Position numbers and translations under genes: made by a program
Assembly (NCBI GenBank): GCA_041658285.1
Contig: JBBAAP010000001.1
Span: 260,916 to 324,915, forward strand
Source of the DNA: Candidatus Brocadiia bacterium
GTDB lineage: Bacteria; Planctomycetota; MHYJ01; JACQXL01
Length of the DNA: 64,000 nucleotides
Reading direction: 5' to 3'
Shown here: one piece after another, positions 2,445-50,136 of the stretch
Position numbering within the stretch: position 1 is the stretch's first letter
Layout: each line of letters opens with the position of its first letter
The notes under the pieces: generated by a model
Database searches by the model: none
Told to the model about the DNA's origin: nothing
The model's input: only the letters and a program-made list of their open reading frames with translations

Positions 2445-5105
2445 TTACTCTTTAAGCGCCGCATGCGCCGCCGCCAGCCGGGCGATAGGCACGCGGTAAG
2501 GCGAAGCGCTGACGTAATCCAGTCCGACCTTATGGCAGAAATGGATGGATTGCGGGTCGCCGCCGTGTTCGCCGCATATGCCGATGCGGATGCCCTTACG
2601 GGCTTTGCGGCCCTTGGCCGCGGCCATAGCTATCAACTGGCCGACGCCGTCTTCGTCTATGCTGACGAACGGGTCGTAAGGAAGTATTTTATTGGCTACG
2701 TAGTATTTGATGAACCGGCCGGCGTCGTCGCGCGAGAAACCGAAGGTCATCTGAGTCAGGTCGTTGGTGCCGAACGAAAAGAACTCGGCCTCGAGCGCGA
2801 TTTTCTCGGCCGTCAGCGCCGCCCGGGGGATTTCTATCATCGTTCCGACCTTGTAATGGACCCGGATGCACTGCTCTTTCATTACCTGTTCGGCCACGCG
2901 GACCGCGATGGCCTTCTGGTCCTTGATTTCGTTGACGTGCCCGACTATGGGAATCATTATTTCGGGCTGGACCTTCTTGCCCTTCTTGGCCACGGCGCAG
3001 GCGGCCTCGATAATGGCCCGGACCTGCATCTCGGTTATCTCCGGATAGGTGATGCCCAGCCGGCAGCCACGGTGGCCCATCATAGGGTTGAACTCGGACA
3101 GCTCTTCGACGCGCTTGAGCAGTTTTTCCTTGGCCACGATTTCATCAGGTTCGCGGCTGCCTTCGAACTTGATGGTGGTGATTTCAACCATCAATTCCTC
3201 GCGCTTGGGCAGGAACTCGTGCAACGGCGGGTCTATCATCCGGATGGTCACCGGATAGCCCTTCATTATGTCAAAGAGCCTGAAGAAATCGTCTCTTTGC
3301 AGTGGCAAAAGCTTGTTCAGCGCTTTGCGGCGGAGTTCTTCGGTTTCAGCCAGAATCATTTCCTGGACAATGGGCAGGCGGTCCGGCGCGAAGAACATAT
3401 GTTCGGTTCGGCACAGGCCGATGCCCATGGCGCCGAATTTTATGGCCATATCGGCGTCGCGCGGGATGTCGGCGTTGGCTTCGACGCCCAGCGTGCGGAA
3501 CTTGTCGGCCCAGCTCAGGAGCTTGTTGAAATCCTGGAACATCTTTGATTTCTCAGGCGCCAGAGTCCCCTTGACCACCTGCATTATTTCCGAATCGTTG
3601 GTCTTGATGTCGCCCAGAAACACCTCGCCGGTCGAGCCGTCAATGGATATGAAATCGCCTTCCTTGACGGTAACGTTGCCGGAAGTAAATCTCTTATGCT
3701 TTTCGCTGACCTTGATGACCGAACAACCAACCACGCAGGGCTTGCCCATCTGGCGGCCGACCACGGCGGCGTGCGAGGTCATTCCGCCGGTGGCGGTCAG
3801 AACGCCCCTGGCCTTTATCATGCCCTCGACGTCGTCCGGCGACGTCTCCATCCTGACCAGCACCACCCGCTCGCCTTTCTGCGCCTGGTGCACGGCGTCA
3901 ACGGCGTTGAACACTGCCTTGCCGGAAGCCGCGCCGGGTGAGGCGTTAAGCCCTTTGGCGATGACCTTGGCCTTTTTCCTTGCTTCCAAATCGAATATCG
4001 GATGCAAGACCTGGTTAATCTGGTCCGGTTCTATCCTTAAAACGGCTTCTTTAATACTTATCAATTTTTCCTCGACCATATCCACGGCGATGCGCATGGC
4101 GGCGTAGCCGGTACGCTTGCCGTTCCTGGTCTGGAGCATATAGAGCTTGCCTTTTTCGATGGTGAATTCAAAATCCTGGATGTCACGGTAGTGTTTTTCC
4201 AGGCGGTCGGTGATACCGCGCAGTTGCTTGAAGGCCTCGGGCATTTCGTCAGCCAGCTTGGTAATCGGCTGGGGCGTACGGATGCCGGCCACCACGTCCT
4301 CGCCCTGGGCGTTGGTCAGGTATTCGCCGTAGAACTTTTTCTCTCCGTTAGCCGGATTGCGGGTGAAACCAACGCCGGTGGCGCTGGTCATGCCCAAATT
4401 GCCGAAAACCATGGTCTGGATATTTACGGCCGTGCCGATTTCTTCGGGTATCTTGTACATAGCCCGGTAGGCGTTGGCCCGGGGATTGCGCCAGGAACGG
4501 AATACGGCGTCGCGGGCCATCGACAGCTGGACCAGCGGGTCCTGCGGGAACGGCTTGCCTGAGCGCTCCAGTATCAGTTTCTTAAGCTTGGCAACCTTAT
4601 CTTTATTGCTGCCTTCGGACATACCCAGGTTCTTGGCGTATTCGATTTCTAAAACCACCTCACCGAACATCATCAGCAGGCGGCGGTAGCAGTCATAGGC
4701 AAAATCGGGGTTATTGGTCAGCTTGGCCAGCCCTTCGACGGTCTGGTCGTTCATGCCGACGTTAAGGATGGTGTCCATCATACCGGGCATGGAAAACTTG
4801 GCGCCAGAACGGACCGAAACCAGCAGCGGATTGACCGGGTCGCTGAACTTCTTGCCGGTGGCCGATTCGAGCATCTGGATATATTTAATGTATGTCTTTT
4901 CCAGGGCCGGCGGGAATTTCTGGCCGCTTTCATAATACAAGCGGCAAACTGCGGTGGATATGGTGAATCCCGGAGGAATCGGCACGCCCAACCGGGACAT
5001 CTCGGCTAGGTTAGCGCCCTTGCCGCCCAGGATGTCTTTCATCGCACCCTTGCCTTCGGTCTTCTTACCGCCGAAGAAATACAAATACTTTTTACTGTCA
5101 ACCAT
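2445..5105 (-). CDS. ppdK: Pyruvate, phosphate dikinase
   Basis: 886 aa. It has the PEP-utilizing enzyme phospho-His domain (GGMTSHAAVV), the N-terminal ATP-grasp domain and a C-terminal PEP-binding TIM barrel. The match is full-length and colinear with PPDK. Confidence 0.95.
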   Translation of the reverse strand: MVDSKKYLYFFGGKKTEGKGAMKDILGGKGANLAEMSRLGVPIPPGFTISTAVCRLYYESGQKFPPALEKTYIKYIQMLESATGKKFSDPVNPLLVSVRSGAKFSMPGMMDTILNVGMNDQTVEGLAKLTNNPDFAYDCYRRLLMMFGEVVLEIEYAKNLGMSEGSNKDKVAKLKKLILERSGKPFPQDPLVQLSMARDAVFRSWRNPRANAYRAMYKIPEEIGTAVNIQTMVFGNLGMTSATGVGFTRNPANGEKKFYGEYLTNAQGEDVVAGIRTPQPITKLADEMPEAFKQLRGITDRLEKHYRDIQDFEFTIEKGKLYMLQTRNGKRTGYAAMRIAVDMVEEKLISIKEAVLRIEPDQINQVLHPIFDLEARKKAKVIAKGLNASPGAASGKAVFNAVDAVHQAQKGERVVLVRMETSPDDVEGMIKARGVLTATGGMTSHAAVVGRQMGKPCVVGCSVIKVSEKHKRFTSGNVTVKEGDFISIDGSTGEVFLGDIKTNDSEIMQVVKGTLAPEKSKMFQDFNKLLSWADKFRTLGVEANADIPRDADMAIKFGAMGIGLCRTEHMFFAPDRLPIVQEMILAETEELRRKALNKLLPLQRDDFFRLFDIMKGYPVTIRMIDPPLHEFLPKREELMVEITTIKFEGSREPDEIVAKEKLLKRVEELSEFNPMMGHRGCRLGITYPEITEMQVRAIIEAACAVAKKGKKVQPEIMIPIVGHVNEIKDQKAIAVRVAEQVMKEQCIRVHYKVGTMIEIPRAALTAEKIALEAEFFSFGTNDLTQMTFGFSRDDAGRFIKYYVANKILPYDPFVSIDEDGVGQLIAMAAAKGRKARKGIRIGICGEHGGDPQSIHFCHKVGLDYVSASPYRVPIARLAAAHAALKE

Positions 5106-5147
5106 TTTTTTCTCCTATAGTCTTATTATAAAGTACACAATTAATGC

Positions 5148-5684
5148 TTATTCGCCTTCTTTCGTGGTTGCATTTTTAGTTGGCGGCGGGAACAAGCGGT
5201 CCTCGTCCTCCTGGGGCATTTCCAGTATGCCGGCCAGGGTGAAATCAACCCGCCAGGCCAGCGCCTTGGTCTCAGCCGATGCCGGCTCATACACGAAAGT
5301 AAATGTCTTGGAATATTCCGGATATTTCCAATGCCGCAGAACTACTTTGGCTTTCTGAACGTCTAGTCCAGTCCGACTGTCCTTTTCGTTATAATAATCG
5401 ATTGATTGCGTTTCCCAGTTTATCATCAAACTCCGGATAAGCACTCCGAAAATGGTCCATTTCATCATCATGTTGAAATCGCCGTATTTATAGCGGCTGC
5501 GGGTATTTTCCGACATACAGTAATAAGCCGTGCCGTAGTCTTCCTTTTCCAGGGCATCACGGAATATCTGCAGGTTCTTTTCCGGCGTCTCAATCGGGGC
5601 AATCGGCGGCCGGGGCGGGCAGGAAGCGCCCGGCAGCATAATAAGAAACACCGCGACCAATAATATTATTTGGTAAATTTTCAT
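5148..5684 (-). CDS. Hypothetical secreted protein, probably a lipoprotein
   Basis: The ORF track gives 5148..5735. I prefer the internal Met at 5684 because it starts the signal peptide MKIYQIILLVAVFLIMLPGASC (lipobox-like GASC). The mature part is rich in Trp and Tyr and matches no recognisable family. Confidence 0.5.
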   Translation of the reverse strand: MKIYQIILLVAVFLIMLPGASCPPRPPIAPIETPEKNLQIFRDALEKEDYGTAYYCMSENTRSRYKYGDFNMMMKWTIFGVLIRSLMINWETQSIDYYNEKDSRTGLDVQKAKVVLRHWKYPEYSKTFTFVYEPASAETKALAWRVDFTLAGILEMPQEDEDRLFPPPTKNATTKEGE

Positions 5685-5771
5685 AATTAACTGGCTGATT
5701 GTATAGCCATTAAGCCTGATGTCAAGAGAAATCAATAGGTTTAACTAATAAAGCTATTTATATTCAAATGG

Positions 5772-6641
5772 TTATTTAGATAAAGTCCGCATCGCACGGG
5801 TCAGGTATTTTAAGAGGTCCGAGGCTATCAACGAGTGCTGGCCGAGGTCTTTGGCGGCCAGGTCTCCAGCCTTGCCATGCAGGTAGACAGCCAGCTGGGT
5901 AGCCTGGAAATCGGGCAGCTTCTGGCCAAGTAAACCGGCGATGATTCCGGTCAGGACATCGCCCGAACCGGCCGTAGCCATGCCCGGGTTGCCGGTATCA
6001 TTAATGTAAATACGCTTGCCGTCGGTGACTATGGTCTGATAGCCCTTGAGGGCTATGATAATGCGGTGTTTCTTAGCGGTTTCTACGGATACTTTTTGGC
6101 GGTTGTGCTGGACATAAGCGCCGGACTTATTAATCAGACGGGCCATTTCGCCGGCGTGCGGAGTTAGAATAATGGAATTAGCTATGGACTTGACCATCCT
6201 GGGAATATATTCAGCATCGGATATGGCGTTAAGACCGTCGGCGTCAATCACTACTGGTTTCCGGCAGGCCAGCAGGAAATCCTGAACCAGCTTGATGGTC
6301 TCGTTGTTGCGCGATATGCCCGGACCGACCACGACAACATCAATATCCCTAGCCAGAGAAACCAGGCGCTCTTTGGCTTTATAAGCAAAGGTGCCGTCGT
6401 AGGTCTCGGGCATCGGAAAGGTAATAACCTCGGTCAGTTTGGAAGCCAGGATAGGCTGCTGTGATTTAGGCACGGCCAGGTAGACCAGCCCGGCGCCGGA
6501 CCTCAAAGCACCCATAGAACAGAGGTAGGCCGCGCCGGACATACCGGTAGAACCGGCCACCATCAGTATCTTGCCGTTATCGCCCTTATGGCAGTCGGGC
6601 CGACGGCAAGGCATTTCGGGTAATGTATCTATCAGTTTCAT
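5772..6641 (-). CDS. nnrD: ADP-dependent NAD(P)H-hydrate dehydratase (YjeF C-terminal domain family)
   Basis: 289 aa. It carries HKGDNGKILMVAGS and the GSGDVLTG ribokinase-like motifs typical of YjeF-C / Nnr2. Confidence 0.85.
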   Translation of the reverse strand: MKLIDTLPEMPCRRPDCHKGDNGKILMVAGSTGMSGAAYLCSMGALRSGAGLVYLAVPKSQQPILASKLTEVITFPMPETYDGTFAYKAKERLVSLARDIDVVVVGPGISRNNETIKLVQDFLLACRKPVVIDADGLNAISDAEYIPRMVKSIANSIILTPHAGEMARLINKSGAYVQHNRQKVSVETAKKHRIIIALKGYQTIVTDGKRIYINDTGNPGMATAGSGDVLTGIIAGLLGQKLPDFQATQLAVYLHGKAGDLAAKDLGQHSLIASDLLKYLTRAMRTLSK

Positions 6642-20767: not shown

Positions 20768-21188
20768 TTTTGTAAGCAGATTAAGCTGATTTATCTGATT
20801 TTAATCAAGTATTAATTTAGATTAGTAGACCGCTTATGTCAACCAAATTTCCTACACCCGAATACTTCAAATATAACCACTAAAACTACTGATTTTTAAT
20901 TTTACCACGAAGACACGAAAGTAAGAAAGCACTAAATTTCGTGTTTTGATAGTTTGGCTGTTAGAACATAGTGAGTTATCAGCCGACTATACCTAGCAGT
21001 CCATCGGCTGTTAGCGACAAAGGAGCGTTACAGCCGAGGATACCCAGCAGTAATTCACTAACGTTCAAACTGCTGGAGTATAATTCGCTAACACTCAAAC
21101 TGCCAGAGTACTGTTTCGAGTTTTCGTGGTATATTAATAAAATAATCAGTGTTCTCAGTGCCCTCAGTGGTTTAATATGGCGGATTTC
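20768..21188. repeat. Intergenic region composed of CAC-NNA-G family repeat modules
   Basis: It contains TACCACGAAGACACGAAAGTAAGAAAGCACTAAATTTCGTGTTTTG and GAGTTTTCGTGGTATATTAATAAAATAATCAGTGTTCTCAGTG. Its segments 20950-21000 and 21090-21110 recur as reverse complements at 23950-24040. Confidence 0.75.
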
Positions 21189-22451
21189 TTAAACAGTATC
21201 AGCCAATACGCTAATGGCGTGGCGGACCTTGACCCGGCCCTTATCAGCCGAACCGAGCAGGTATTCCAATTGCATCATACAGCCCGGGCAGTTGGTGACC
21301 ACAACATCGGGATTGGATTTGACAATACCGTCCAGCCGGGCTTGGCCGATGCGCCGGGACAGCTCCGGATACTTAAAACCGAACAACCCGCCCCCGCCGC
21401 AGCACAGGTCGGCCTCGGATTCACGATAGGCAGTTTCCTTGCGCAGGAACGACCTTATCATCTCCGGCGAATTATTCCAGGTGGAATGGCAAGGCTCGTG
21501 GTATAATGTAGAGTTCGGAGCGCTGGGTTTGGAGTAATTAATTCTATTCTCAGCCAGGCAGAATTCCATCACATCCATTATCTCAGGATGGCTCTGTGTC
21601 CTCTGAGCCTCCGTAGCTAGTAACAAAGGATACTCCGTTTTAAGCATCCGGCCGCAGGTAGCGCAAGCGGTCAGGACGATGTCAGCGTCCTTAAGCGCTT
21701 TGATATTATGTTGGGCCAGCTTCCGGGCGGTCCGGACATCACCCGAAAGCAATGCCGGCAGTCCGCAGCATAACTGGTCCTGCGGAATATAGTAATACAC
21801 GCCCATCTTATCCAGCACCTTGATGATATCGCCCAGCACTTCAGGGTAGATATAATTTATGGCACATCCGACGAATATAGCCACCTTTGGCTTATTGCCT
21901 CTGTGGCTCTGTGGCAAATATGAATCCAGCGCCGGTTTCTTAGCCAGCCGCGGTATCTTGGCAGTCAGCTCGCCCAGCGCCAGAGGCAGGTGCCGGAGCG
22001 GCGGACGGGCATACCCTGTAGAGGCAGGCCTCGCGCCTGCCTTATTTCGGGCAACCGCAAGGGTTGCCCCTACAAATTTCCAAATAGGAATAATCCGACT
22101 CATTACCCAAATCGACAGGTCATAGAGCCAGCGGTGCGGCAGAATCCAGTTAAACCCGAGCCATACCGGCAGAGGCAGTCCCTTTTGACGGACCGCCCGG
22201 GCCCGGCCGGACTTGAAGGCCTTGCCGGTCTCAACCAATGACGGGCAATTATCCTCACAGCGCAGGCACATCAGGCAGGAGTTGATAATCTCACGGGACC
22301 GGCTGGAATGGATGGGCAGTTGTTCCTTAAGGAAGGCAATGCGTCCGCGTGCCACCAGGGCTTCATCTTTAAGCGCGGCGAATACCGGGCAGACCGACCG
22401 GCACTGGCCGCATTTAGCGCACTGTTCTAAAACTTGAGGGTCTAATCTCAT
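21189..22451 (-). CDS. glcF: (Fe-S)-binding oxidoreductase, GlcF/GlpC-like, with two 4Fe-4S motifs and CCG domains
   Basis: It has CAKCGQCRSVCP and CLMCLRCEDNCP ferredoxin motifs followed by cysteine-rich CCG domains (CCGLPA, CCGGGG). Confidence 0.8.
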   Translation of the reverse strand: MRLDPQVLEQCAKCGQCRSVCPVFAALKDEALVARGRIAFLKEQLPIHSSRSREIINSCLMCLRCEDNCPSLVETGKAFKSGRARAVRQKGLPLPVWLGFNWILPHRWLYDLSIWVMSRIIPIWKFVGATLAVARNKAGARPASTGYARPPLRHLPLALGELTAKIPRLAKKPALDSYLPQSHRGNKPKVAIFVGCAINYIYPEVLGDIIKVLDKMGVYYYIPQDQLCCGLPALLSGDVRTARKLAQHNIKALKDADIVLTACATCGRMLKTEYPLLLATEAQRTQSHPEIMDVMEFCLAENRINYSKPSAPNSTLYHEPCHSTWNNSPEMIRSFLRKETAYRESEADLCCGGGGLFGFKYPELSRRIGQARLDGIVKSNPDVVVTNCPGCMMQLEYLLGSADKGRVKVRHAISVLADTV

Positions 22452-27459: not shown

Positions 27460-27610
27460 ATATTAAACCACTAAGTGCACTAAGAACACTGATTGTTTCA
27501 TTAATATACCACGAAAACTCGAAATAACCAAAACACAAAATTTAGTGTTTTCTTACTTTCGTGCCTTCGTGGTAAGATTGAAAATCAGTGATTTCAGTGT
27601 TCTCAGTGGT
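27460..27610. repeat. Mosaic palindromic intergenic repeat (CAC-NNA-G family), full copy
   Basis: The left arm AACCACTAAG..AACACTGA pairs with the right arm TCAGTGTTCTCAGTGGTT. The inner module ...CCACGAAAACTCGAAAT...CTTACTTTCGTGCCTTCGTGGTAAG is the reverse complement of the module at 28963-29040. Confidence 0.8.
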
Positions 27611-27616
27611 TGTATT

Positions 27617-28933
27617 TTAAGTATTAGGTTTTAACCGGCTGTTGAGCTGTTTTGCCTTGTCTTTGATAGCCTCTAAATCATCAAAACCAACGCCGGGCAT
27701 ACGGCAGGAGTAAACCGATTTGTTGTGCAGGAGCGGTTCGGCAGTTATCTGAGGAAGTTCTTTGGCCGCCTTGAGGAAATCTGGCGTGCCGGGAACCGGG
27801 GCGTATTGGGCCATCTTGATTATCCCGCCGCTTTTATGGACGAACTCGATGCTTTGGTCCACTTCCTCGAGCGCCTGGCCGGGCAGTCCCATCAGGACAT
27901 AAACGCCGACATCAACCGGCTTGAATCCGGATTGGTAAAGATAGCCCAGCGTCCGGGGCAGGTCGGCCGAAGCGGTCTTGCGCGACGAATCTTCCTGCCG
28001 ACTGACGCTCTCGAACCCGAGCCTGATGGTCTTGAATCCGGCCCGGCATAACTTGCCGGCCAGCTGTTTGTCTATCAAACTTATATGCAACCCGTTGGGC
28101 GTATGGAAACGCGCTTTTTGGTTAAGCCCCCGGCTGATGATGCCGTCAATAATCGGTTCGATATGCTTATGGCTGTCGAACAACAGGGCGTCATCGTAAA
28201 AGGCGATATCCTCAACGCCCAAATCCGAAATATAATAATTTATTTCATCGATTACCTGACTGGGTTCCCGGCAAGTATAGCCGTCGTTAAGCTCTGCGCT
28301 GGCGCAGTATGAACAGCGGAACGGGCATCCGCGCGAGGTAATCATCGCCGCGGATTTCAATCCCGGATAAAGATGATAGGCCGGATAGGATTCTGTATTT
28401 GGAGTATTGGATACGGGATTTATTCCGATTGTCTTAACTAATTCCAGGACCTGCTCCTCGCCCGGCCCGGTGATGACATAATCAGCCCCGGAGTTCCGGC
28501 GGGCGTGTTCGGCGCAGAGCGTGGCATATACCCCGCCCAAAGCTATGGGCGATTTCGGATAGGCTTTCCGGATAACAGCGATGATCTCAGCCACGCCGGT
28601 GTACCAGTAGGTCATCATCGAGGTGACCAGAACCAGGTCCGGTTCGGACGGCAATGCCTTGAGCCGGCCGGCTAATTCCGCGGGCGTGATGCCGTAACGT
28701 TTGTACTTGCGCGGTATCCCGGAAAAACAGTCCGGCTTGGCGATTACCTGGCTCCGGAAATGGCCGCAGTTATACGGGCCGGAAGACTCTACGCCCTCGG
28801 CCAGGCAATCAATCAGGCTGATTGGGTAACCGCGCTGCTCCAGGAATCCGCCCAGATACAAAAGGCCAAGCGGCTTCATCCACAGGTCATAGGCGGCGAA
28901 GTCGTGTATCCAGGGATTGACCAGAAGAATCAT
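27617..28933 (-). CDS. B12-binding domain / radical SAM protein
   Basis: It has an N-terminal cobalamin-binding Rossmann domain and a CPFRCSYC radical SAM cluster motif. Confidence 0.8.
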   Translation of the reverse strand: MILLVNPWIHDFAAYDLWMKPLGLLYLGGFLEQRGYPISLIDCLAEGVESSGPYNCGHFRSQVIAKPDCFSGIPRKYKRYGITPAELAGRLKALPSEPDLVLVTSMMTYWYTGVAEIIAVIRKAYPKSPIALGGVYATLCAEHARRNSGADYVITGPGEEQVLELVKTIGINPVSNTPNTESYPAYHLYPGLKSAAMITSRGCPFRCSYCASAELNDGYTCREPSQVIDEINYYISDLGVEDIAFYDDALLFDSHKHIEPIIDGIISRGLNQKARFHTPNGLHISLIDKQLAGKLCRAGFKTIRLGFESVSRQEDSSRKTASADLPRTLGYLYQSGFKPVDVGVYVLMGLPGQALEEVDQSIEFVHKSGGIIKMAQYAPVPGTPDFLKAAKELPQITAEPLLHNKSVYSCRMPGVGFDDLEAIKDKAKQLNSRLKPNT

Positions 28934-28940
28934 AGATTAA

Positions 28941-29045
28941 TCCAAATACAACCACTAAGAACACTGAAATCACTGATTTCAATCTTACCACGAAGGCACG
29001 AAAGTAAGAAAGCACTAAATTTCGAGTTTTCGTGGTATATTAATA
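28941..29045. repeat. Mosaic palindromic intergenic repeat (CAC-NNA-G family), inverted relative to the copy at 27460-27610
   Basis: The sequence is AACCACTAAGAACACTGAAATCACTGATTTCAATCTTACCACGAAGGCACGAAAGTAAGAAAGCACTAAATTTCGAGTTTTCGTGGTATATTAATAAAA. Its terminal 30 bp are identical to 21116-21145. Confidence 0.8.
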
Positions 29046-29070
29046 AAACTTTACCGTGAAATCAGATGAA

Positions 29071-29754
29071 TCAGCGGTTTCTTTTTATGACAAACACCCA
29101 TAAGGGAGGAACGAACATTATCAGCAGTAATACTGCAGCCAGCCCGATATTTATTGGCTGGCTGAGGATGGCGTATGATTTGTCGATATTAGGCCGGGTC
29201 AACTGCCAGACCTGGGGCAGGCTGTTCATTGTTACCAATCTAAGATAGAAGAATATTATCAGGCTCATCACCCTGAGAAACCGCCACTGTTCCAGGTGCT
29301 TGGTTATCTGGACCCAGCTGAACTGCCCGTTGGCCGGGATATTGCTCGGCCACAGGCGCGGGATGATGCGCGGCACTTTTTGGCAGTAGGCGTCATAATC
29401 CGCTCCGAAACGCTGGCGCAGGAATGTTTCCTCCTTGCGGATGCGCCAGTTGATGACGCCCAAATAGAAAATAACCATATAGGCAACGGTGATATAAATA
29501 TTGAGCGAGATGATGCAAAGCCCGGCATCGAGCAGGATATTGGCGAAGTAAAACGGGTTGCGGACAAACCGGTACGGCCCGGCGGTGATGAGCTGTTCCT
29601 GCTTGACCAGGTAACCGGACGAGATGAAGTGTATGACCTGTCCGACGAATATGAGCGCCCCGCCGATTACCAGCGAGGTAACGCTGGGATAAGACCAGAC
29701 CAGCAGGGACAGGATGAATAACTTGCGGACATTGGTCCGGAGCTTGAATTTCAT
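29071..29754 (-). CDS. Isoprenylcysteine carboxyl methyltransferase (ICMT)/PEMT-family membrane methyltransferase
   Basis: It has the GPYRFVRNPFY and EE..L...FG..Y..Y motifs of the ICMT/PEMT family. Confidence 0.75.
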   Translation of the reverse strand: MKFKLRTNVRKLFILSLLVWSYPSVTSLVIGGALIFVGQVIHFISSGYLVKQEQLITAGPYRFVRNPFYFANILLDAGLCIISLNIYITVAYMVIFYLGVINWRIRKEETFLRQRFGADYDAYCQKVPRIIPRLWPSNIPANGQFSWVQITKHLEQWRFLRVMSLIIFFYLRLVTMNSLPQVWQLTRPNIDKSYAILSQPINIGLAAVLLLIMFVPPLWVFVIKRNR

Positions 29755-44010: not shown

Positions 44011-45492
44011 ATGAAGAAAATACTTGCGGTTCTGTTCCTGATGCTGCTAGTCGGATTACCGGTCGCCTGGTCCGCCCCGGACAACGCGCCGGCCAGCCCG
44101 ACCAATACATCAAGCGTCAAACAGCTGGTCTATGTCATCCCCATAAAAGGCGCCATCATGGATTGGGGGCTGAACTACTTCGTCAAACGCTCCATCGAAA
44201 CAGCCAAATCAAATAACGCCGCGCTTATCATATTCGACATCGACACGCCCGGCGGACGGGTGGATATCAGCATTGAATTATGCAATATCATAGAGAACGC
44301 CGCGCCCATAACAACCGTGGCTTATGTGGACAAATGGGCCGTCTCGGCCGGCTCGCTCATCTCTATCGCGGCTGATAAAATAATAATGAAAGACGGCGCT
44401 ATCATCGGCTCGGCCGAAGTGGTCGGCGCGCCGGTCGGCCACGAGGAAAAATACGCTTCGGTGATGAGAACCGAGTTCAAGGCCCGGGCCCAGAAAAAGG
44501 GCTACCCCCATAATCTGATGATGGCCATGGTCGACAAGGATATGGAGGTCTTCGAGGTTAAGGTCGACGGCAAACGCGACTTCCTTACCCGCGACGAGAT
44601 AAAAAACCTGTCCATGCAGGGCAAAGAGGTGGCCGAAATCGGGCTGGTCATCGGCAAAGGTAAACTCCTCAACCTGACCGCCCGCGACGCCCTCAACTAC
44701 GGCCTGGCCACGGCCATCAAGGATAACCGCGATGAAATCCCGGCGCTCTTTGATATTAAATCATTCAAAATAACAGAAGCATCCCAAACCTGGTCGGAAT
44801 ACCTGGTCGCCTTCTTAGCCGACCAGACGGTCACGCTTATCCTCGTCGCCGTCGGTTTGATAGCCGGCTATTCGGCGTTCCAGATGCCGGGCACAGGACT
44901 GCTGGAAGCTATCGCCGTCCTCTGCTTCGGCATAATATTCTTCAGTCAGTACCTAGTCGGCCTGGCGCAGGTAACAGAAATACTGCTTTTTATTCTCGGC
45001 ATAGGATTAATCGGAGTGGAAATCTTCTTACTGCCCGGATTCGGGGTGGCCGGCATCAGCGGCGCAATCCTTATCTTCGTCAGCCTGATATTATCCATGC
45101 AAAACTTCACACTGCCGGACATAGAAAAAGCCCCCTGGCAATGGACCATACTCCAGCATAATTTTGTCACAGTCGGCGCGGCGCTTATCATCTCCATAGT
45201 TATATTAATCATCATCGCCCGGTTCCTGCCTTCGATGCCCATATTCAACCGGATGATACTGCCCACGGCGCTGGCCACCCCGGCCGGAATCACCGTTTCC
45301 GGGATAGACGCCGGCACGCTGGTCGGCAATAAAGGGATTGTCTTGACGGACCTCAGGCCTTCGGGTAAGATACGCCTCGATAACAGCGAAGAAACACTGG
45401 ATGTGGTCACCGACGGCGACTTCATCAACAAAGGCGAATCCGTCGTCATCGACGCGGTCGAAGGCAGTCGGATTGTCGTTAGAAAGGCATAA
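44011..45492 (+). CDS. nfeD: NfeD-like membrane-bound serine protease (long form: ClpP-class domain + TM + OB-fold)
   Basis: It has a signal peptide, a ClpP/crotonase-like domain (IIFDIDTPGGRVD, WAVSAGSLISIAAD), a block of 5+ TM helices, and a C-terminal OB domain (GIVLTDLRPSGKIRL). Confidence 0.8.
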   Translation: MKKILAVLFLMLLVGLPVAWSAPDNAPASPTNTSSVKQLVYVIPIKGAIMDWGLNYFVKRSIETAKSNNAALIIFDIDTPGGRVDISIELCNIIENAAPITTVAYVDKWAVSAGSLISIAADKIIMKDGAIIGSAEVVGAPVGHEEKYASVMRTEFKARAQKKGYPHNLMMAMVDKDMEVFEVKVDGKRDFLTRDEIKNLSMQGKEVAEIGLVIGKGKLLNLTARDALNYGLATAIKDNRDEIPALFDIKSFKITEASQTWSEYLVAFLADQTVTLILVAVGLIAGYSAFQMPGTGLLEAIAVLCFGIIFFSQYLVGLAQVTEILLFILGIGLIGVEIFLLPGFGVAGISGAILIFVSLILSMQNFTLPDIEKAPWQWTILQHNFVTVGAALIISIVILIIIARFLPSMPIFNRMILPTALATPAGITVSGIDAGTLVGNKGIVLTDLRPSGKIRLDNSEETLDVVTDGDFINKGESVVIDAVEGSRIVVRKA

Positions 45493-45556
45493 TAGCCACA
45501 GAGTCACAGAGGACACGGAGTAATACTAATGGTTTTGTCCCCTGTAGTTTTATAGA

Positions 45557-45925
45557 ATGGACATTAACCAACTTACGGAAAAAATTATCGGATGTGCGAT
45601 TGAAGTTCATCGATATCTTGGACCAGGGTTGCTTGAAAATATCTATGAATCCGCTCTCTGTATTGAGTTAGAAGCGGCTAAGTTAAAATATGGCCAACAG
45701 GTAGTTATACCGGTTATTTATAAAGGGAAACAAATTGGAGAAAACAGGATCGATTTAATAGTGGAAAATGAGGTCGTAGTTGAAATAAAGAGTGTGGAAA
45801 GATTTGATCCGGTTTTTGAAGCACAGGTTTTGACATATTTAAAAATAACTGGTAAAAAAGTTGGGTTATTGATTAATTTTAACAGTCGATTGCTTAAAGA
45901 CGGAATAAAAAGATTCATATTATGA
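45557..45925 (+). CDS. GxxExxY protein (PD-(D/E)XK nuclease superfamily, TIGR04256-like)
   Basis: 122 aa with G-LLENIY and D.IVE..VVVEIK motifs. It is low-GC and sits inside a palindromic intergenic repeat. Confidence 0.85.
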   Translation: MDINQLTEKIIGCAIEVHRYLGPGLLENIYESALCIELEAAKLKYGQQVVIPVIYKGKQIGENRIDLIVENEVVVEIKSVERFDPVFEAQVLTYLKITGKKVGLLINFNSRLLKDGIKRFIL

Positions 45926-46026
45926 TTCTCCGTGAACTCTATGTTTCTGTTAAAAGACGGGAATAGGAAAAATTATATTATGATTCTCTGTGAACTCTGC
46001 GCCTCAGTGGCAAAGACAAGGTATTT

Positions 46027-46485
46027 ATGAGTCTGGAACTGATTATTTTAATCTACGCCCTGGCGCTGGCAATATTGGTGGTCGAAGCCTTTGTGCCCAG
46101 CGGCGGCATCCTGGCTTTGGTCGGCGGCATCGGGCTGGTCGTCAGCCTTTATTACTCATTCACCAAATACGGCGCCCTGCTCGGCTCGGCCCAGTCTATC
46201 ATCGCGCTTATACTCATACCACTGGTCATTTACATCGGCTTCAGGAAAATGACCTTGAAGAAAAACCTGGATACCTCCGAAGGCTTCACTTCGGAAAAAG
46301 CCGGGCTGGACCAACTGCTCAATAAGGAAGGCATAGCTCATACAAACCTCAGGCCCTCCGGCACCGCCGTCATCGAAGGCAAAAAGATTGACGTCGTCAC
46401 CGAAGGCGATATGATCGACAAGGACACCCAAATCAAAGTAATAAAGGTCGAAAGTAACAGAGTTATTGTAAGGATAAAATCTTAA
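46027..46485 (+). CDS. NfeD short-form protein (membrane anchor + OB-fold)
   Basis: 152 aa with two TM helices and a C-terminal OB fold (NLRPSGTAVIEGKKIDVVTEGDMI). It directly precedes floA. Confidence 0.8.
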   Translation: MSLELIILIYALALAILVVEAFVPSGGILALVGGIGLVVSLYYSFTKYGALLGSAQSIIALILIPLVIYIGFRKMTLKKNLDTSEGFTSEKAGLDQLLNKEGIAHTNLRPSGTAVIEGKKIDVVTEGDMIDKDTQIKVIKVESNRVIVRIKS

Positions 46486-46497
46486 TAGGAGGTTTTT

Positions 46498-47517
46498 ATG
46501 GAACTGACAACTATCGGAATCGGCATAGGCTTGCTTGTCTTGATTGTGGTGGGAATAATCGTGTCCAAGTTCTTCTTCCTGTGGCTCCAGGCCCTGCTTT
46601 CCGGCGCGCCGGTAAAACTGCTGGACCTGGTCGGTATGTGGTTCCGGAAAGTCGACTCATACACCATCGTCGTCAACCGGATTAACGCCGTCAAGGCCGG
46701 GCTGAACATCCCCACCGACAAGCTCGAAGCCCACTACCTGGCCGGCGGCAACGTCACCAACGTAGTCCGGGCGCTTATCGCCGCCAATAAGGCGGGCATT
46801 CCCCTGATTACCGAACGGGCCATGGCCATCGACCTGGCCGGACGGGACGTGCTCGGCGCCGTCCATACCAGCGTTCTGCCCAAGGTCATCGACTGCCCCA
46901 AACAATCCGAAGGCACCCGCGCCACCATTGACGCCGTAGCCAAGGACGGCATCCAGCTCCGGGCCCGGGCCAGGGTCACCGTCCGGACCAACCTGGACCG
47001 CCTGGTCGGCGGCGCTACCGAGGAAACCATCATCGCCCGCGTCGGCGAAGGCATCGTCACCACCATCGGCTCGGCTGATACATATAAAATGGTCCTGGCC
47101 AGCCCGGACAGCATCTCCAAGAAGGTACTGGAAAAAGGGCTCGATGCCGGCTCGGCTTTTGAAATCCTGTCCATAGACATTGCCGACGTCGATGTCGGCG
47201 ATAACATCGGCGCCAAACTCCAGACCGACCAGGCCGCGGCCGACCTCAAGATCGCCCAGGCCAAGGCCGAAACCCGGCGCGCTATGGCTGTGGCGTCCGA
47301 GCAGGAAATGAAGGCCAAGACCCAGGAAATGAGAGCCAAAGTCGTGGAGGCCGAATCCGAGGTGCCCAAAGCCCTGGCCTACGCCTTCCGCGAAGGCAAA
47401 CTCGGCGTGATGGATTATTACAACATAAAGAATATCCAGGCCGATACGGAGATGCGCCATTCCATCGCCGAACCCAAACAGCCCGAAAAGGGAAATCCCG
47501 AAAAACACAACCACTAA
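46498..47517 (+). CDS. floA: Flotillin-like protein FloA (UPF0365/YqfA family)
   Basis: It has an N-terminal TM segment and an SPFH-like region ([28 protein letters not shown]...). Confidence 0.85.
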
Positions 47518-47586: not shown

Positions 47587-49041
47587 GTGCTCATCAAACA
47601 AAGGACCAAAAACCTAATCCCCGCACTCCTGCTTATCCTCTGCCTTGCCCTGCCCAGCGCCGTAATATTAGCCGCCTCGCCGACGACGGACATCGCCGGC
47701 CGGATTGACTCGTTGGTGGTCAAGCACCACCTGACCAAGTCGCACCTGGGCGTCAAGATAATCTCCTGGCCCGAACGCCAGGTCGTCTACGAAAAGAACC
47801 CCGACTATCTTATGGCCGTGGCCTCCAATATGAAACTCATCACCACCGGCGTGGCACTGTGCAAACTCGGGCCGGACTTCCAGTTCGCCACCTCGCTTTA
47901 TTACGACGGCGTTATACAGAACGAAACTCTCCAGGGCAACCTGGTGGTCAAGAGCAACGGCGACCCCAATATCTCCGGCCGGTTCTACAACGACAAACCG
48001 CTGGCCGTATTCGAGCAATGGCGTAATAAGCTGGCCGGGCTGGGCGTTACCAACGTCCAGGGCAATATCATCCTCGACGATACCGCATTCGACCGCGACT
48101 ACGTCAACGACTACTGGCCCAGCAACCAGCTCAACTGCTGGTACTGCGCCCCGGTCTCGGGCATCGCCTTCAACGACAACTGCATCGACATCACTGTCCG
48201 CCCGGCCGAAAATACCAAAGCCGCGACATCGCCCCCGACCAAATACGTCAGCCTCATCAACAACAGCTATCCGGGCTCCAGAAATACCCTGACCTTCTGC
48301 CGCCTGCCCGGCACCAACGTCATCACCGTCAAAGGCGCCATCTCCGGCGATATACTCTGCCACAAGGAATCAGTTCCGGTGGACAACCCGGTTTTATTCT
48401 TCGGCACGGTCCTTTCGGAAACGATGACCAAGAACATAACCATCAGCGGCAAGGTCGTCCTGGCCGAACGCGCCTACGACCCCAAGGCCGACCGGCTGAC
48501 CGAAATCTGCCGGAACAGCACCGACCTCAAGAAGACCATCACCGTCACCAACCAGCGCAGCCAGAACCTCTACGCCGAACAGATATTCAAACTGCTCGGA
48601 TGCCAGTTCAAGGGCAAAGGCACATTCGAGACCGGCGCCGCCGCCGTCGGCGATTTCCTGGACCGGCAGGTCAATATCCCCAGCAATACTTACCTGATAT
48701 CGGACGGCTCAGGCCTGGCCCGGAGCAACTGGGTCGCCCCCGGCCAGATGGTCCAGTTCCTGAGCTATATGGCCGGCCACAAGTATTTTAACGATTACCG
48801 CGACTCGCTCAACAACCGCGCCTGGCCCGAAGGCAACAACAAGAAGAAATCACGCATCTGGGCCAAGACCGGCACCATCAACAACGTTAAATGCCTGTCC
48901 GGATACGTCTGCGGCGACAACGGCAAGCCCAGGTATATATTTTCCATAATGAACAACGGGCTAGAATACGTGCCCGAAGGCCCCTACGGCGCGCTCGAAT
49001 TCCAGAACGAGGTGGCGAAATTATTAGCCGAAGAAAAATAG
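47587..49041 (+). CDS. dacB: D-alanyl-D-alanine carboxypeptidase/endopeptidase (PBP4, S13 family)
   Basis: It has a signal peptide, an SxxK motif (SNMK) and overall PBP4 architecture. Confidence 0.85.
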   Translation: MLIKQRTKNLIPALLLILCLALPSAVILAASPTTDIAGRIDSLVVKHHLTKSHLGVKIISWPERQVVYEKNPDYLMAVASNMKLITTGVALCKLGPDFQFATSLYYDGVIQNETLQGNLVVKSNGDPNISGRFYNDKPLAVFEQWRNKLAGLGVTNVQGNIILDDTAFDRDYVNDYWPSNQLNCWYCAPVSGIAFNDNCIDITVRPAENTKAATSPPTKYVSLINNSYPGSRNTLTFCRLPGTNVITVKGAISGDILCHKESVPVDNPVLFFGTVLSETMTKNITISGKVVLAERAYDPKADRLTEICRNSTDLKKTITVTNQRSQNLYAEQIFKLLGCQFKGKGTFETGAAAVGDFLDRQVNIPSNTYLISDGSGLARSNWVAPGQMVQFLSYMAGHKYFNDYRDSLNNRAWPEGNNKKKSRIWAKTGTINNVKCLSGYVCGDNGKPRYIFSIMNNGLEYVPEGPYGALEFQNEVAKLLAEEK

Positions 49042-49254
49042 CCACTGAGGCACAGAGAACACCGAGAATTAATTATATTTAATCTCTATGAACTCTGAGT
49101 CTCTGTGGCTTAACTTATGAGAAAAGAAGAATACACCACAGACAAGCTCGAATACAATCTGGTTTTATAAGGAATCCAAGAGAACAAGAATAATTATTTT
49201 TCCTGAATTCCTGGTCTCCTTATAAATAGAATTCTCAGTGCTCTCTGTGCCTCT

Positions 49255-50136
49255 GTGGCAAAGATTTATATGAGATATGAAGGCAACATCATCCGCCCGC
49301 CCAGCGAGGCAGACAGTTATCTGCTCCAGATAACCTACGGCTGTTCGCACAACAAATGCGCCTTCTGCGGCACCTACGACCAGAAATTCCGCGTCCGCCC
49401 GCTCGAAGACGTCCTGACCGACATCGCACTGGCCGGCAAATGCGTGCCCCACACCCGGCGTGTGTTCCTGTGCGACGGCGACGCTATGATTCTGCCCAAC
49501 AGCCAGCTCCTGAAAATACTCAAAGCGCTGGCTATGGTTTTCCCCGAGCTCCAACGGGTTGGCATCTACGCCAACGCCCGCGATATAATCAAGAAGACCG
49601 ACTCCGAGCTGGCCGAGCTGGCTGAACACAAGCTGACCATCGCCTATATCGGGCTGGAAAGCGGCAACGACGAAGTGCTCCGCCGTGTCAACAAAGGCGC
49701 CACCGCATCGGATATGATAACAGCCGTTAAGAAAGCACAGGCCAACGGCATAAAGATGTCCGTCATCGGGCTGATTGGGCTGGGCGGTAAAGAGCTCTCC
49801 CAACCGCACGCGCTGGACACGGCCAAAGCCGTCAACCTGATGAACCCGCGTTATTTCAGCCTGCTTACATTAATGATAGTAAACGGCACGCCGCTGGCCG
49901 ATGATTATAAGTCAGGCAAGTTCGAACTGCCCGAAGCCGAGGATATGGTCAAAGAAATCCGGCTGGTAGTCGCCAACATAGACAGCAACCAGACCATCTT
50001 CCGAGCCAACCACGCATCCAATTACGCGCCGCTGGCCGGCACCTTCAACAAAGACAAAGCCCGACTACTGGCCGAGATAGACAGCTACCTTAAGGGCGAC
50101 AACAACTTCCGCCCCGAGTTCATGCGCGGATTGTAG
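49255..50136 (+). CDS. Radical SAM protein
   Basis: It has a GCSHNKCAFCGTY cluster motif (C-x4-C-x2-C variant). Confidence 0.7.
   Translation: MAKIYMRYEGNIIRPPSEADSYLLQITYGCSHNKCAFCGTYDQKFRVRPLEDVLTDIALAGKCVPHTRRVFLCDGDAMILPNSQLLKILKALAMVFPELQRVGIYANARDIIKKTDSELAELAEHKLTIAYIGLESGNDEVLRRVNKGATASDMITAVKKAQANGIKMSVIGLIGLGGKELSQPHALDTAKAVNLMNPRYFSLLTLMIVNGTPLADDYKSGKFELPEAEDMVKEIRLVVANIDSNQTIFRANHASNYAPLAGTFNKDKARLLAEIDSYLKGDNNFRPEFMRGL

Follow-up and report, generated by a model that had tools for sequence, protein, structure and literature searches.

How did a small gene coding for a GxxExxY protein come to lie between two inverted repeat arms, and what do the gene and the arms have to do with each other? 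This question is raised by positions 45493–46026 of a stretch of 64,000 nucleotides (nt) from a Candidatus Brocadiia bacterium (contig JBBAAP010000001.1), the whole of which is called the window in the following. The locus is one copy of a widespread composite element in which the gene of a minimal nuclease of 120 amino acids (aa) with a PD-(D/E)XK core is bracketed by two inverted arms of ~30 bp built of heptads. We suggest, with a probability of about 0.55, that the window unit is a member of an autonomous/non-autonomous pair of the kind formed by insertion sequences (IS) and miniature inverted-repeat transposable elements (MITEs), or by REP-associated tyrosine transposases (RAYTs) and doublets of repetitive extragenic palindromes (REPINs), and that it would be run by a nuclease resembling Cas4 and lambda exonuclease, a mechanism that we infer. 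The parts of the locus and the two genes next to it are the following.

44011–45492, plus strand: gene of an NfeD1b-type membrane protease (Pfam)
45494–45520, plus strand: left arm with three CRCNRAG units, AGCCAC-A-GAG T CAC-A-GAG GA CAC-G-GAG, sequence AGCCACAGAGTCACAGAGGACACGGAG
45521–45556, plus strand: spacer of 36 nt between the left arm and the ATG of the GxxExxY gene
45557–45925, plus strand: GxxExxY / PDDEXK_3 nuclease gene, 122 aa (profiles TIGR04256 and PF13366)
45928–45947, plus strand: truncated inner right arm, CTCCGTG AA CTCTATG and then degenerate, the end of copy 1 of a tandem duplication
45948–45985, plus strand: copy 2 of the last ~35 nt of the gene, a dead 3′ fragment reading roughly KDG..IL and a stop
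45986–46011, plus strand: outer right arm, which closes the element, CTCTGTG AA CTCTGCG C CTCAGTG GC, sequence CTCTGTGAACTCTGCGCCTCAGTGGC
46012–46026, plus strand: 15 nt, AAAGACAAGGTATTT, from the right arm to the start codon (ATG) of the small NfeD gene, included in the segment that the relatives lack
46027–46485, plus strand: gene of a small NfeD protein (Pfam)

The left arm AGCCACAGAGTCACAGAGGACACGGAG begins 1 nt after the TAA stop codon of the NfeD1b gene, and both arms consist of three units of 8–9 nt with the core CACNGAG; between the left arm and the outer right arm CTCTGTGAACTCTGCGCCTCAGTGGC, 20 of 26 positions are complementary. The first-pass annotation of this DNA had seen both arms, which are real, but had placed the left one at 45491–45517 and had let the right one end near 46020. 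It had rightly described a low-GC GxxExxY gene at 45557–45925 between inverted arms, as the profile match over the full length and a GC content of 0.30–0.39 against ~0.55 in the flanks confirm. Public gene calls begin this gene 24 codons too late, which is why a look-up of the exact protein gave no match. Downstream of the gene follow a truncated inner right arm, the dead gene fragment, and the complete outer right arm, in this order. The inner arm is a partial one, CTCCGTGAACTCTATG (45928–45943), directly 3′ of the GxxExxY stop, and in a repeat search it pairs with the left arm over 23 nt at 78%. A 24-bp repeat (45917–45940 and 45975–45998, 23 of 24 positions identical) had been located correctly and taken for an insertion duplication or a terminal repeat of the cassette; instead it is part of a tandem duplication of 57/58 bp (45891–45947 and 45948–46005, 85% identity, one 1-nt indel) comprising the last 35 nt of the open reading frame (ORF) and units one and two of the right arm. 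This duplication represents a partial tandem copy in decay, a by-product often met in the family of GxxExxY units, and the pattern recurs in two of the loci described below (L078 and L018).

That the unit was inserted is shown by relatives in which it is missing. The small NfeD protein has relatives at 84% (L082), 68, 59, and 51% amino acid identity across the loci L082, L083, L084, and L085, and in these four loci the stop of the NfeD1b gene and the start of the NfeD gene overlap or are 1–9 nt apart, with neither arms nor a GxxExxY gene between them. Alignment of the window to L083 with blastn leaves an extra segment of 540 nt in the window (45485–46026) that contains exactly one left and one right arm. 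Judged from these alignments, the window unit, a segment of 534 bp with arms and gene, is an insertion between genes which directly abut in four relatives, and both the arms and the gene are missing from the ancestral NfeD1b|NfeD junction. The idea of a small inserted cassette has thus been borne out. The gene-less palindromes, too, are insertions: at one stop|ATG junction, L028 has such a palindrome, L035 and L043 have degenerate forms of it, and L027 has none. The terminus of the arms (TTAG / CTAA) often provides the stop codon of the gene upstream. As a separate observation, the left arm of the gene-less palindrome in L028 (1282–1406) replaces the upstream stop codon and is read through, which adds ~12 residues ending in NEPQSHRDSEKK and a stop.

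A junction of an acyl carrier protein (ACP) gene and a ligase gene in Acidobacteria was found in several states, as identical or near-identical ACP genes are followed by a full unit, by a solo left arm, by no arm, or by a different heptad palindrome; therefore, turnover does occur. A search through ACP homologues for an orthologous site with the same arms and without the gene found none, and solo arms, no arms, or the other heptad palindrome were met instead. Two long duplications that by eye resembled target-site duplications were dropped. For AGAAAGGCAT and AGACAAGGTAT at the window locus, the shared AAGG is possibly just a ribosome-binding site, and the AAGG within AAAGACAAGGTATTT may serve the small NfeD gene as such; for CCAATCCC at the ACP|ligase site, the right-hand motif is also found upstream of the ligase start in the arm-less genome L234.

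The architecture of the window unit recurs far beyond this genome. One genome per species was scanned, yielding 80 loci with GxxExxY relatives at 50–79% identity from Acidobacteriota, Sumerlaeota, Chloroflexota, Verrucomicrobiota, Cloacimonadota, Ignavibacteria, Marinimicrobia/Fidelibacterota, Planctomycetota, Proteobacteria, Bacteroidota, Spirochaetes, and Calditrichaeota. All loci in this study were picked either by gene or by arm and are therefore biased samples, mostly from metagenome-assembled genomes or metagenome contigs, and the arm detector is motif-based and misses degenerate copies. In locus after locus (A/T)GCCACAGAG-N-CACAGAG-N-CACAGAG stands just 5′ of the gene and its complement just 3′ of it. 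When only CACNGAG was accepted as unit, a left arm was present within 200 nt upstream in 45 of 71 evaluable loci and a right arm within 200 nt downstream likewise in 45 of 71; inspection by eye revealed lineage variants of the unit (CACGAAG, CACTAAG/CACAAAG, or CGCAGAG) in most of the remaining loci. With the arm generalized to at least three CRCNRAG units, 186 arms were counted in the 515 kb of the window and the related loci, whereas the shuffled sequence gave 1. The distances between a left arm and the right arm that follows it have a bimodal distribution, with values either below 100 nt or of 300–600 nt.

Copies other than that of the window are indeed flanked by such arms, as the first-pass annotation had demanded of its own proposal: 51 strict arm pairs enclose the reference GxxExxY gene, and within ~200 nt of the gene there are 139 arms in 33 kb, and the other 381 kb of these loci contain 34, so that the density is 47-fold higher beside the gene. 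The arms of ~30 bp are built of a TTWGCCAC terminus followed by three units of 8–9 nt with the core CRCNRAG, and left and right arms share one consensus, which reads from the outside in TTWGCCACAGAG R CACAGAG R(N) CACAGAG. The element is thus bounded by terminal inverted repeats in the way of an IS or a MITE, and the combination of gene and arms holds for this GxxExxY clade in more than 12 phyla.

No second cargo family recurs between the arms, and no four-helix-bundle genes were seen there in a search for other cargo. Arm pairs enclose an unrelated larger ORF in two isolated cases, L071 (3390–4473, 310 aa) and L081 (1308–2857, 330 aa), and these ORFs either happen to lie between two elements or are alternative cargo of a rare kind. 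Atypical layouts were noted in the Rhodospirillales loci L054, L063, and L075 and in L065 and L079: right-type arms stand upstream only, the two sides both have left-type arms in direct orientation, or the chirality is reversed. Other heptad repeats occupy similar positions (L226–L229, ~1745–1855; L236, 750–845; L045, 3′ of the gene), namely a GCAGGAG-type palindrome at the ACP|ligase junction, direct GATTGAG repeats, and GGCTGAG repeats. In the intergenic DNA of Acidobacteria, heptad arrays may thus be more widespread as a phenomenon.

The encoded protein is a full-length member of its family, matching TIGR04256 over positions 1–116 of 116 (E=1e-44, 151 bits, cut-off 35) and PF13366 with E=2e-43 (148 bits, cut-off 22). 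In an alignment of 43 homologues E27, D66, E76, Q90, and Y94 fall into invariant columns and K78 is nearly invariant; we assign E27, D66, E76, and K78 to the putative catalytic core and Q90 and Y94 to a RecB-type QxxxY motif. The AlphaFold2 model based on these 43 homologues has a mean pLDDT of 94 and an alpha-beta-beta-beta-alpha-beta core, and its best matches in the PDB are Cas4 SSO0001 (4ic1; E=8e-4, TM 0.53), lambda exonuclease, and LHK-Exo. A sequence search of the PDB with the protein gave no relative, PHROGs gave no match, and PADLOC gave weak matches to Cas4 hidden Markov models (HMMs) (E~3e-3) and to no other defence-system model. As the only cysteines are C13 and C35, the protein lacks an iron-sulfur cluster with four cysteines as in Cas4. 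The family comprises 30,513 clusters at 50% identity (E<=1e-3). Among its top-scoring members are proteins of ~275–295 aa with two GxxExxY domains (P0260–P0265 and others), which presumably are fused or read-through tandem units.

Copies of the element that share one site were compared in Acidobacteria (acyl carrier protein|AMP-ligase), Verrucomicrobia, ten Anaerolineae, Sumerlaeota, and Marinimicrobia. The ratio of nonsynonymous to synonymous substitution rates (dN/dS) of the GxxExxY copies at the same site is 0.02–0.15 and dS is mostly saturated; therefore, the protein has been kept by selection through long vertical descent. In the same alignments the flanking intergenic DNA is randomized, whereas the arm positions GCCAC.GAG.C.C.GAG.C.C.GAG are invariant and change within the arms is confined to position 2 (A/G) and position 4 (any base) of the unit and to the spacers. 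Both the core positions of the arms and the protein are thus under purifying selection. The two arms of an element carry the same motif variant, GAG or AAG. One protein cluster unites members with CACNAAG arms from Planctomycetes, a spirochaete, and an Ignavibacterium, and the window protein, although its host belongs to the Brocadiia, groups with GAG-armed proteins of Acidobacteria and Sumerlaeota. Arm type thus follows the protein clade and not the host phylum. Between the gene and the gene-less palindromes of the same locus the arm types matched in two cases and differed in two, which are few cases. The GC content of the gene is below that of the flanks in 80 of 80 loci, on average by 10.5 points and in the window by 21 points. 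As a side observation, the GC content of the gene tracks that of the host (r=0.91), and its AT-richness holds even at apparently ancient, vertically inherited sites.

A census of exact arms in metagenomes, which started from the arms and not from the gene, covered at least 120 loci and 604 kb. Among at least 141 exact arms listed, at least 68 belong to palindromes with loops of up to 120 nt and at least 8 to palindromes with loops of 121–300 nt, while at least 34 are partnerless and at least 19 more are partnerless but near a contig end. Among the matches listed, 5 of 5 units with loops of ~400–580 nt contain GxxExxY, and gene-less arm pairs outnumber gene-bearing units by ~10:1. Viral contigs contributed nine exact arms, none with GxxExxY behind it and most visibly in short palindromes, and a search of viral contigs for GxxExxY found no relative. 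On one of them (L087, IMGVR_UViG_3300035696_002251) at least three tandem repeats of ~120 nt with one heptad palindrome each were noted at ~5100–6100, through which an ORF reads as a repetitive peptide. Between full units and gene-less pairs there are intermediates. In L095 a left arm, 37 nt, the last 100 nt of the GxxExxY gene, and a right arm adjoin a full copy; the second copy in L018 is internally deleted; in L078 the 3′ end of the gene and the right arm are repeated in tandem over 185 nt; and L003 and L072 have full tandem copies. Partly deleted forms thus link full units to gene-less arm pairs. In L062 (1767–1869), an unrelated miniature element of ~105 nt with 16-bp inverted ends TTTACCCTGTTAAATA interrupts a GxxExxY gene after residue 93.

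How, then, could such a unit work? We suggest that the heptad arms are arrays of binding or cleavage sites for the encoded nuclease, that is, that they would act as terminal inverted repeats and not as an RNA helix. The nuclease would cut at the arms and host repair or recombination would complete the movement; the enzyme would be hydrolytic, and a target duplication would not be made. The nuclease might also serve the gene-less palindromes in trans, which would then be the non-autonomous members of the pair. Movement would be rare, because the copies stay at fixed operon junctions for very long times. A wider claim can be put forward tentatively and with more doubt than confidence: the GxxExxY units may be a new class of prokaryotic mobile elements whose only protein is a ~120-aa nuclease resembling Cas4 and lambda exonuclease and recognizing CRCNRAG heptad arrays, the intergenic heptad palindromes of Acidobacteriota, Planctomycetota, Chloroflexota, Verrucomicrobiota, and others being their non-autonomous offspring, so that a partnership like that of REPIN and RAYT would have been invented independently.

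Several points weigh against the pair of a mobile unit and its dependants. Target-site duplications, for which the first-pass annotation had proposed to test gene-containing and empty palindromes, are not detectable: anchored direct repeats at the flanks are as frequent as in the permuted expectation, and the two sites for which an uninterrupted relative exists (the window locus and the L028/L027 junction) have none. Recognition of the arms by the protein is deduced from co-occurrence and co-variation, which co-transfer alone could give. There is no direct sign of recent transposition, because identical GxxExxY proteins occur in a single genomic context each and the copies at the same site are ancient and under strong purifying selection; the gene may be domesticated. 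To our knowledge, no PD-(D/E)XK protein acts as a sole transposase. In addition, several arm variants exist side by side in a genome, and the window itself has palindromes of the GAG and of the AAG type together with one GxxExxY gene. Since a GCAGGAG-type heptad palindrome sits at one of the same junctions, heptad palindromes may also be a broader group of which not all members are tied to the GxxExxY nuclease.

Among the rival explanations a role of the arms in RNA survives best, although we consider it unlikely. The arms would pair in the polycistronic transcript like an intervening sequence (IVS), and the stem would be cut by RNase III or would mask the ribosome-binding site of the nuclease gene; the cassette would thereby be harmless inside an operon and its expression controlled, and the gene-less palindromes would be elements of mRNA processing or stability. 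In fact, the predicted minimum-free-energy fold of 45488–46018 closes the left arm on the outer right arm (z = -3.4). The unit stands in an operon-like run of plus-strand genes (NfeD1b, GxxExxY, NfeD, FloA, S13 peptidase, radical-SAM), and neither a promoter, including a sigma-70-like one in a scan of the spacer 45521–45556, nor a terminator was found inside it, so that co-transcription with the NfeD/FloA operon is probable. The ATG follows the left arm at 0–16 nt in about half of the units, in which the ribosome-binding site must therefore lie in the purine-rich arm (GGAG/GAGG); the right arm is rich in CCUC. Size and layout also resemble the IVS of Coxiella and Leptospira (PMC4990558). On the contrary, the variable positions of the arms are uncompensated: at the free position 4 the complementarity between the two arms is not in excess (0.47–0.57 observed, 0.44–0.47 expected), and G.U-compatible changes are not enriched on the sense strand (42 on the sense and 30 on the antisense strand, p=0.19; weighted 20.7 and 17.6). 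Without such compensation the arms look like inverted recognition arrays and not like a compensated helix. Furthermore, the same primary motif is kept across phyla, which a helix would not need, there are many solo arms and arms in direct orientation, and no Rfam family reached the gathering threshold in the window, where searches at E up to 10 gave only noise and no rRNA. The lack of compensation argues against pairing as the selected trait, yet roles in RNA and in DNA are not mutually exclusive.

It is improbable that the GxxExxY gene homes into palindromes that spread by other means, the nuclease cutting gene-less palindromes at the dyad and its gene being copied into the loop by repair that uses the arms as homology of ~27–30 bp. 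Loops can be insertion points, as the nested palindromes at 27467–27611, 28951–29075, and 49133–49259 of the window illustrate, and minimal recombination substrates are about as long as the arms. The several states of the ACP|ligase junction among near-identical ACP genes would also fit. However, the ancestral site of the window locus has no palindrome, so that arms and gene came together or in two steps, the arm type follows the protein clade across host phyla, and no orthologous pair with the same arms and the gene present in one and absent in the other was found. For the same reason, the missing ancestral palindrome, the proposal that GxxExxY genes target pre-existing palindromes is disfavoured at this locus.

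Even less probable is a domesticated system in which the nuclease has a task in the host, such as the processing of hairpins or cruciforms at replication forks or a role in defence, with the arms as operators or substrates. A parallel proposal exists for single-copy RAYTs, and RAYT/REPIN systems, too, persist and are passed on mainly by vertical descent (PMC5581495; bioRxiv 10.1101/2022.05.22.493013). The vertical inheritance at fixed operon junctions with its low dN/dS and saturated dS and the very large size of the family also favour such a role. Against it stand the gene being more AT-rich than the host in all 80 loci, the cross-phylum similarity of 75–82% between GxxExxY proteins, the 'multiple transfers' in earlier phylogenies of the family (PMC3424549), and the frequent decay products, which point to a selfish history; the weak Cas4 matches in PADLOC, without any other defence model or a PHROG match, do not speak for defence either. 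Finally, a coincidence in which abundant intergenic palindromes (terminators or REP-like), common as they are between the genes of the window, happen to flank a small horizontally acquired gene can practically be dismissed, as it is already contradicted by the 47-fold arm density beside GxxExxY genes across phyla, by the missing T-tract past the arms, and by the absence of the arms from the ancestral site.

If the unit is a mobile element with dependants, it has known counterparts, which it resembles in part. As in REPIN/RAYT systems (Bertels and Rainey 2011, PMC3116915; PMC3337134; PMC5581495), a nuclease gene is flanked by inverted short repeats, the repeat is found in far larger numbers as inverted doublets without a gene in intergenic DNA, and purifying selection acts on an enzyme gene whose inheritance is mostly vertical and long-lasting. 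The differences concern the parts. RAYT is an HUH Y1 transposase similar to the TnpA of IS200/IS605, whereas here Pfam and NCBIfam recognize only PDDEXK_3 / GxxExxY in a 120-aa PD-(D/E)XK protein, and REP is a hairpin with a GTAG head, whereas the arm consists of three tandem heptads without an internal dyad. RAYTs are typically single-copy and vertically inherited, whereas the cross-phylum similarity of the GxxExxY proteins suggests transfer; within a genome, GxxExxY genes probably form large families of paralogues. Hosts differ as well, comprising here Acidobacteriota, Planctomycetota, Chloroflexota, Verrucomicrobiota, and others. With IS and MITEs the units share terminal inverted repeats of ~30 bp around a single enzyme gene, internally deleted derivatives that keep the ends only, discrete presence or absence at orthologous sites, and termini which carry stop codons and sit tightly between genes. 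Unlike IS and MITEs, however, no target-site duplication was detected, the only ORF codes for a PD-(D/E)XK nuclease and not for a DDE, HUH, serine, or tyrosine transposase, and the ends are built of iterated heptads. Identical GxxExxY proteins were seen in a single context each, and the 64-kb window has one copy.

The IVS in the 23S rRNA of Coxiella and Leptospira are 428–444 nt long with a 28-bp terminal stem and an internal ORF and are excised by RNase III (PMC4990558). They share with the units a size of ~430–530 nt, an inverted repeat of ~26–28 bp, a possible closing stem, and an ORF of ~120 aa, and they are regarded as selfish and tolerated since their excision or processing spares the host gene. 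The units, in contrast, lie between protein-coding genes and not in rRNA helices, their arms are a conserved sequence motif and not any complementary pair, with a stem that is predicted from the sequence, and their ORF codes for GxxExxY instead of the S23p four-helix bundle. Free-standing homing endonuclease genes, including that of the PD-(D/E)XK enzyme I-Ssp6803I, are likewise small nuclease genes possibly persisting by cutting sites that lack them; the target here would be a dispersed repeat family and not one allele, and the ancestral window site lacks the putative target. Enzymes of the Cas4, lambda exonuclease, and RecB type share the D...E.K core and the QxxxY motif (Q90, Y94), and Cas4 SSO0001 and lambda exonuclease are the best structural matches, although these nucleases are about twice as large. 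Cas4 itself has ~200 aa, four Fe-S cysteines, and cas genes as neighbours, whereas the window protein has 122 aa, two cysteines, a TM score of ~0.53 from a fold match confined to the core, and NfeD/FloA genes as neighbours without CRISPR context. In integron cassettes an attC site with R″/L″-L′/R′ cores lies at the 3′ end of the ORF and an IntI integrase is near, whereas here, by our reading of the layout, the palindrome encloses the ORF and the annotated neighbours are NfeD, FloA, the S13 peptidase, and the radical-SAM enzyme.

The searchable literature gives no function for GxxExxY / PDDEXK_3. A full-text search with the names and identifiers of the family and with the arm sequences found three passing mentions of the family and none of the arms, and a survey of the PD-(D/E)XK superfamily from 2012 lists PF13366 as 'Unknown... 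Multiple transfers' (PMC3424549). The link between motif arrays and gene gives the first directly testable hypothesis on what GxxExxY proteins act on, and it probably also explains where a class of intergenic palindromes comes from that is common in environmentally dominant, poorly studied phyla. Should the nuclease indeed mobilize or maintain the palindromes, it would be a second, independently evolved counterpart of REPIN/RAYT on a Cas4-like fold and would bear on the recruitment of small nucleases by mobile elements and CRISPR systems. On the practical side, the arms allow the cassettes to be found and delimited cheaply, and awareness of them avoids the annotation of spurious peptides of the 'HRGTEAQR' or 'SVPLCLCG' type, which are translated arms.

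The window contains more arm-type sequences than those of the unit. The arm pattern GCCACWGAGNCNCAGAG with up to 3 mismatches gives 11 matches where 1.67 are expected by chance; none of 100 shuffled sequences gave as many as 11. These sequences and the remaining genes downstream of the unit are the following.

2377–2438, no strand: palindrome without a gene, unit variant CACNAAG, loop of 10 nt
21116–21172, no strand: third, partial copy of the nested palindromes, with a solo right-type arm at its end (21146–21172)
27467–27611, no strand: nested palindromes, outer arms of the CACTAAG type and an inner CACGAA-type palindrome in the loop
28951–29075, no strand: nested palindrome, a near-identical inverted copy of 27467–27611 on the far side of the gene 27617–28933
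46498–47517, plus strand: gene of the flotillin FloA (Pfam)
47587–49041, plus strand: gene of an S13 D-Ala-D-Ala carboxypeptidase (Pfam)
49040–49110, no strand: gene-less palindrome of the same family as the window arms, with 27-nt arms and a 17-nt AT loop
49133–49259, no strand: degenerate or nested palindromes ending in a well-preserved right-type arm (49234–49259) 10 nt before the radical-SAM ATG
ATG at 49270, plus strand: gene of a radical-SAM enzyme (Pfam)

The palindrome next to the S13 peptidase gene had been noticed before, as a second one of the same family at 49042–49115 with a 20-bp loop; it exists and belongs to this family, and its correct extent is 49040–49110 with a loop of 17 nt. 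The S13 peptidase gene has the outer TAG of this palindrome as its stop codon. The part of the loop beside the right arm (ATTATAT-TTAAT) resembles the last codons and the stop of the GxxExxY gene (ATTATATTATGATT), a likeness that is suggestive, though not more. Of the two readings offered for this palindrome, a MITE-like derivative fits better, given the intermediates in L095 and L018 and the loop, than an empty site, which is disfavoured because the ancestral site of the window locus has no palindrome.

The remaining observations concern the composite palindromes. Two near-identical nested palindromes of ~110–125 bp flank, in inverted orientation, the gene of a B12-binding radical-SAM protein (27617–28933, minus strand), and a third partial copy lies 6 kb off; 27467–27611, 28951–29075, and 21116–21172 thus form a repeat family of composite palindromes. 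Two further arm-type sequences (21591–21617 and 21891–21915) lie in frame inside an ORF with Fer4/CCG domains (21189–22451, minus strand), where they are translated as ATEAQRTQS and LPQSHRG, respectively. They may be in-frame insertions of solo arms, reminiscent of the palindromic elements of Rickettsia.

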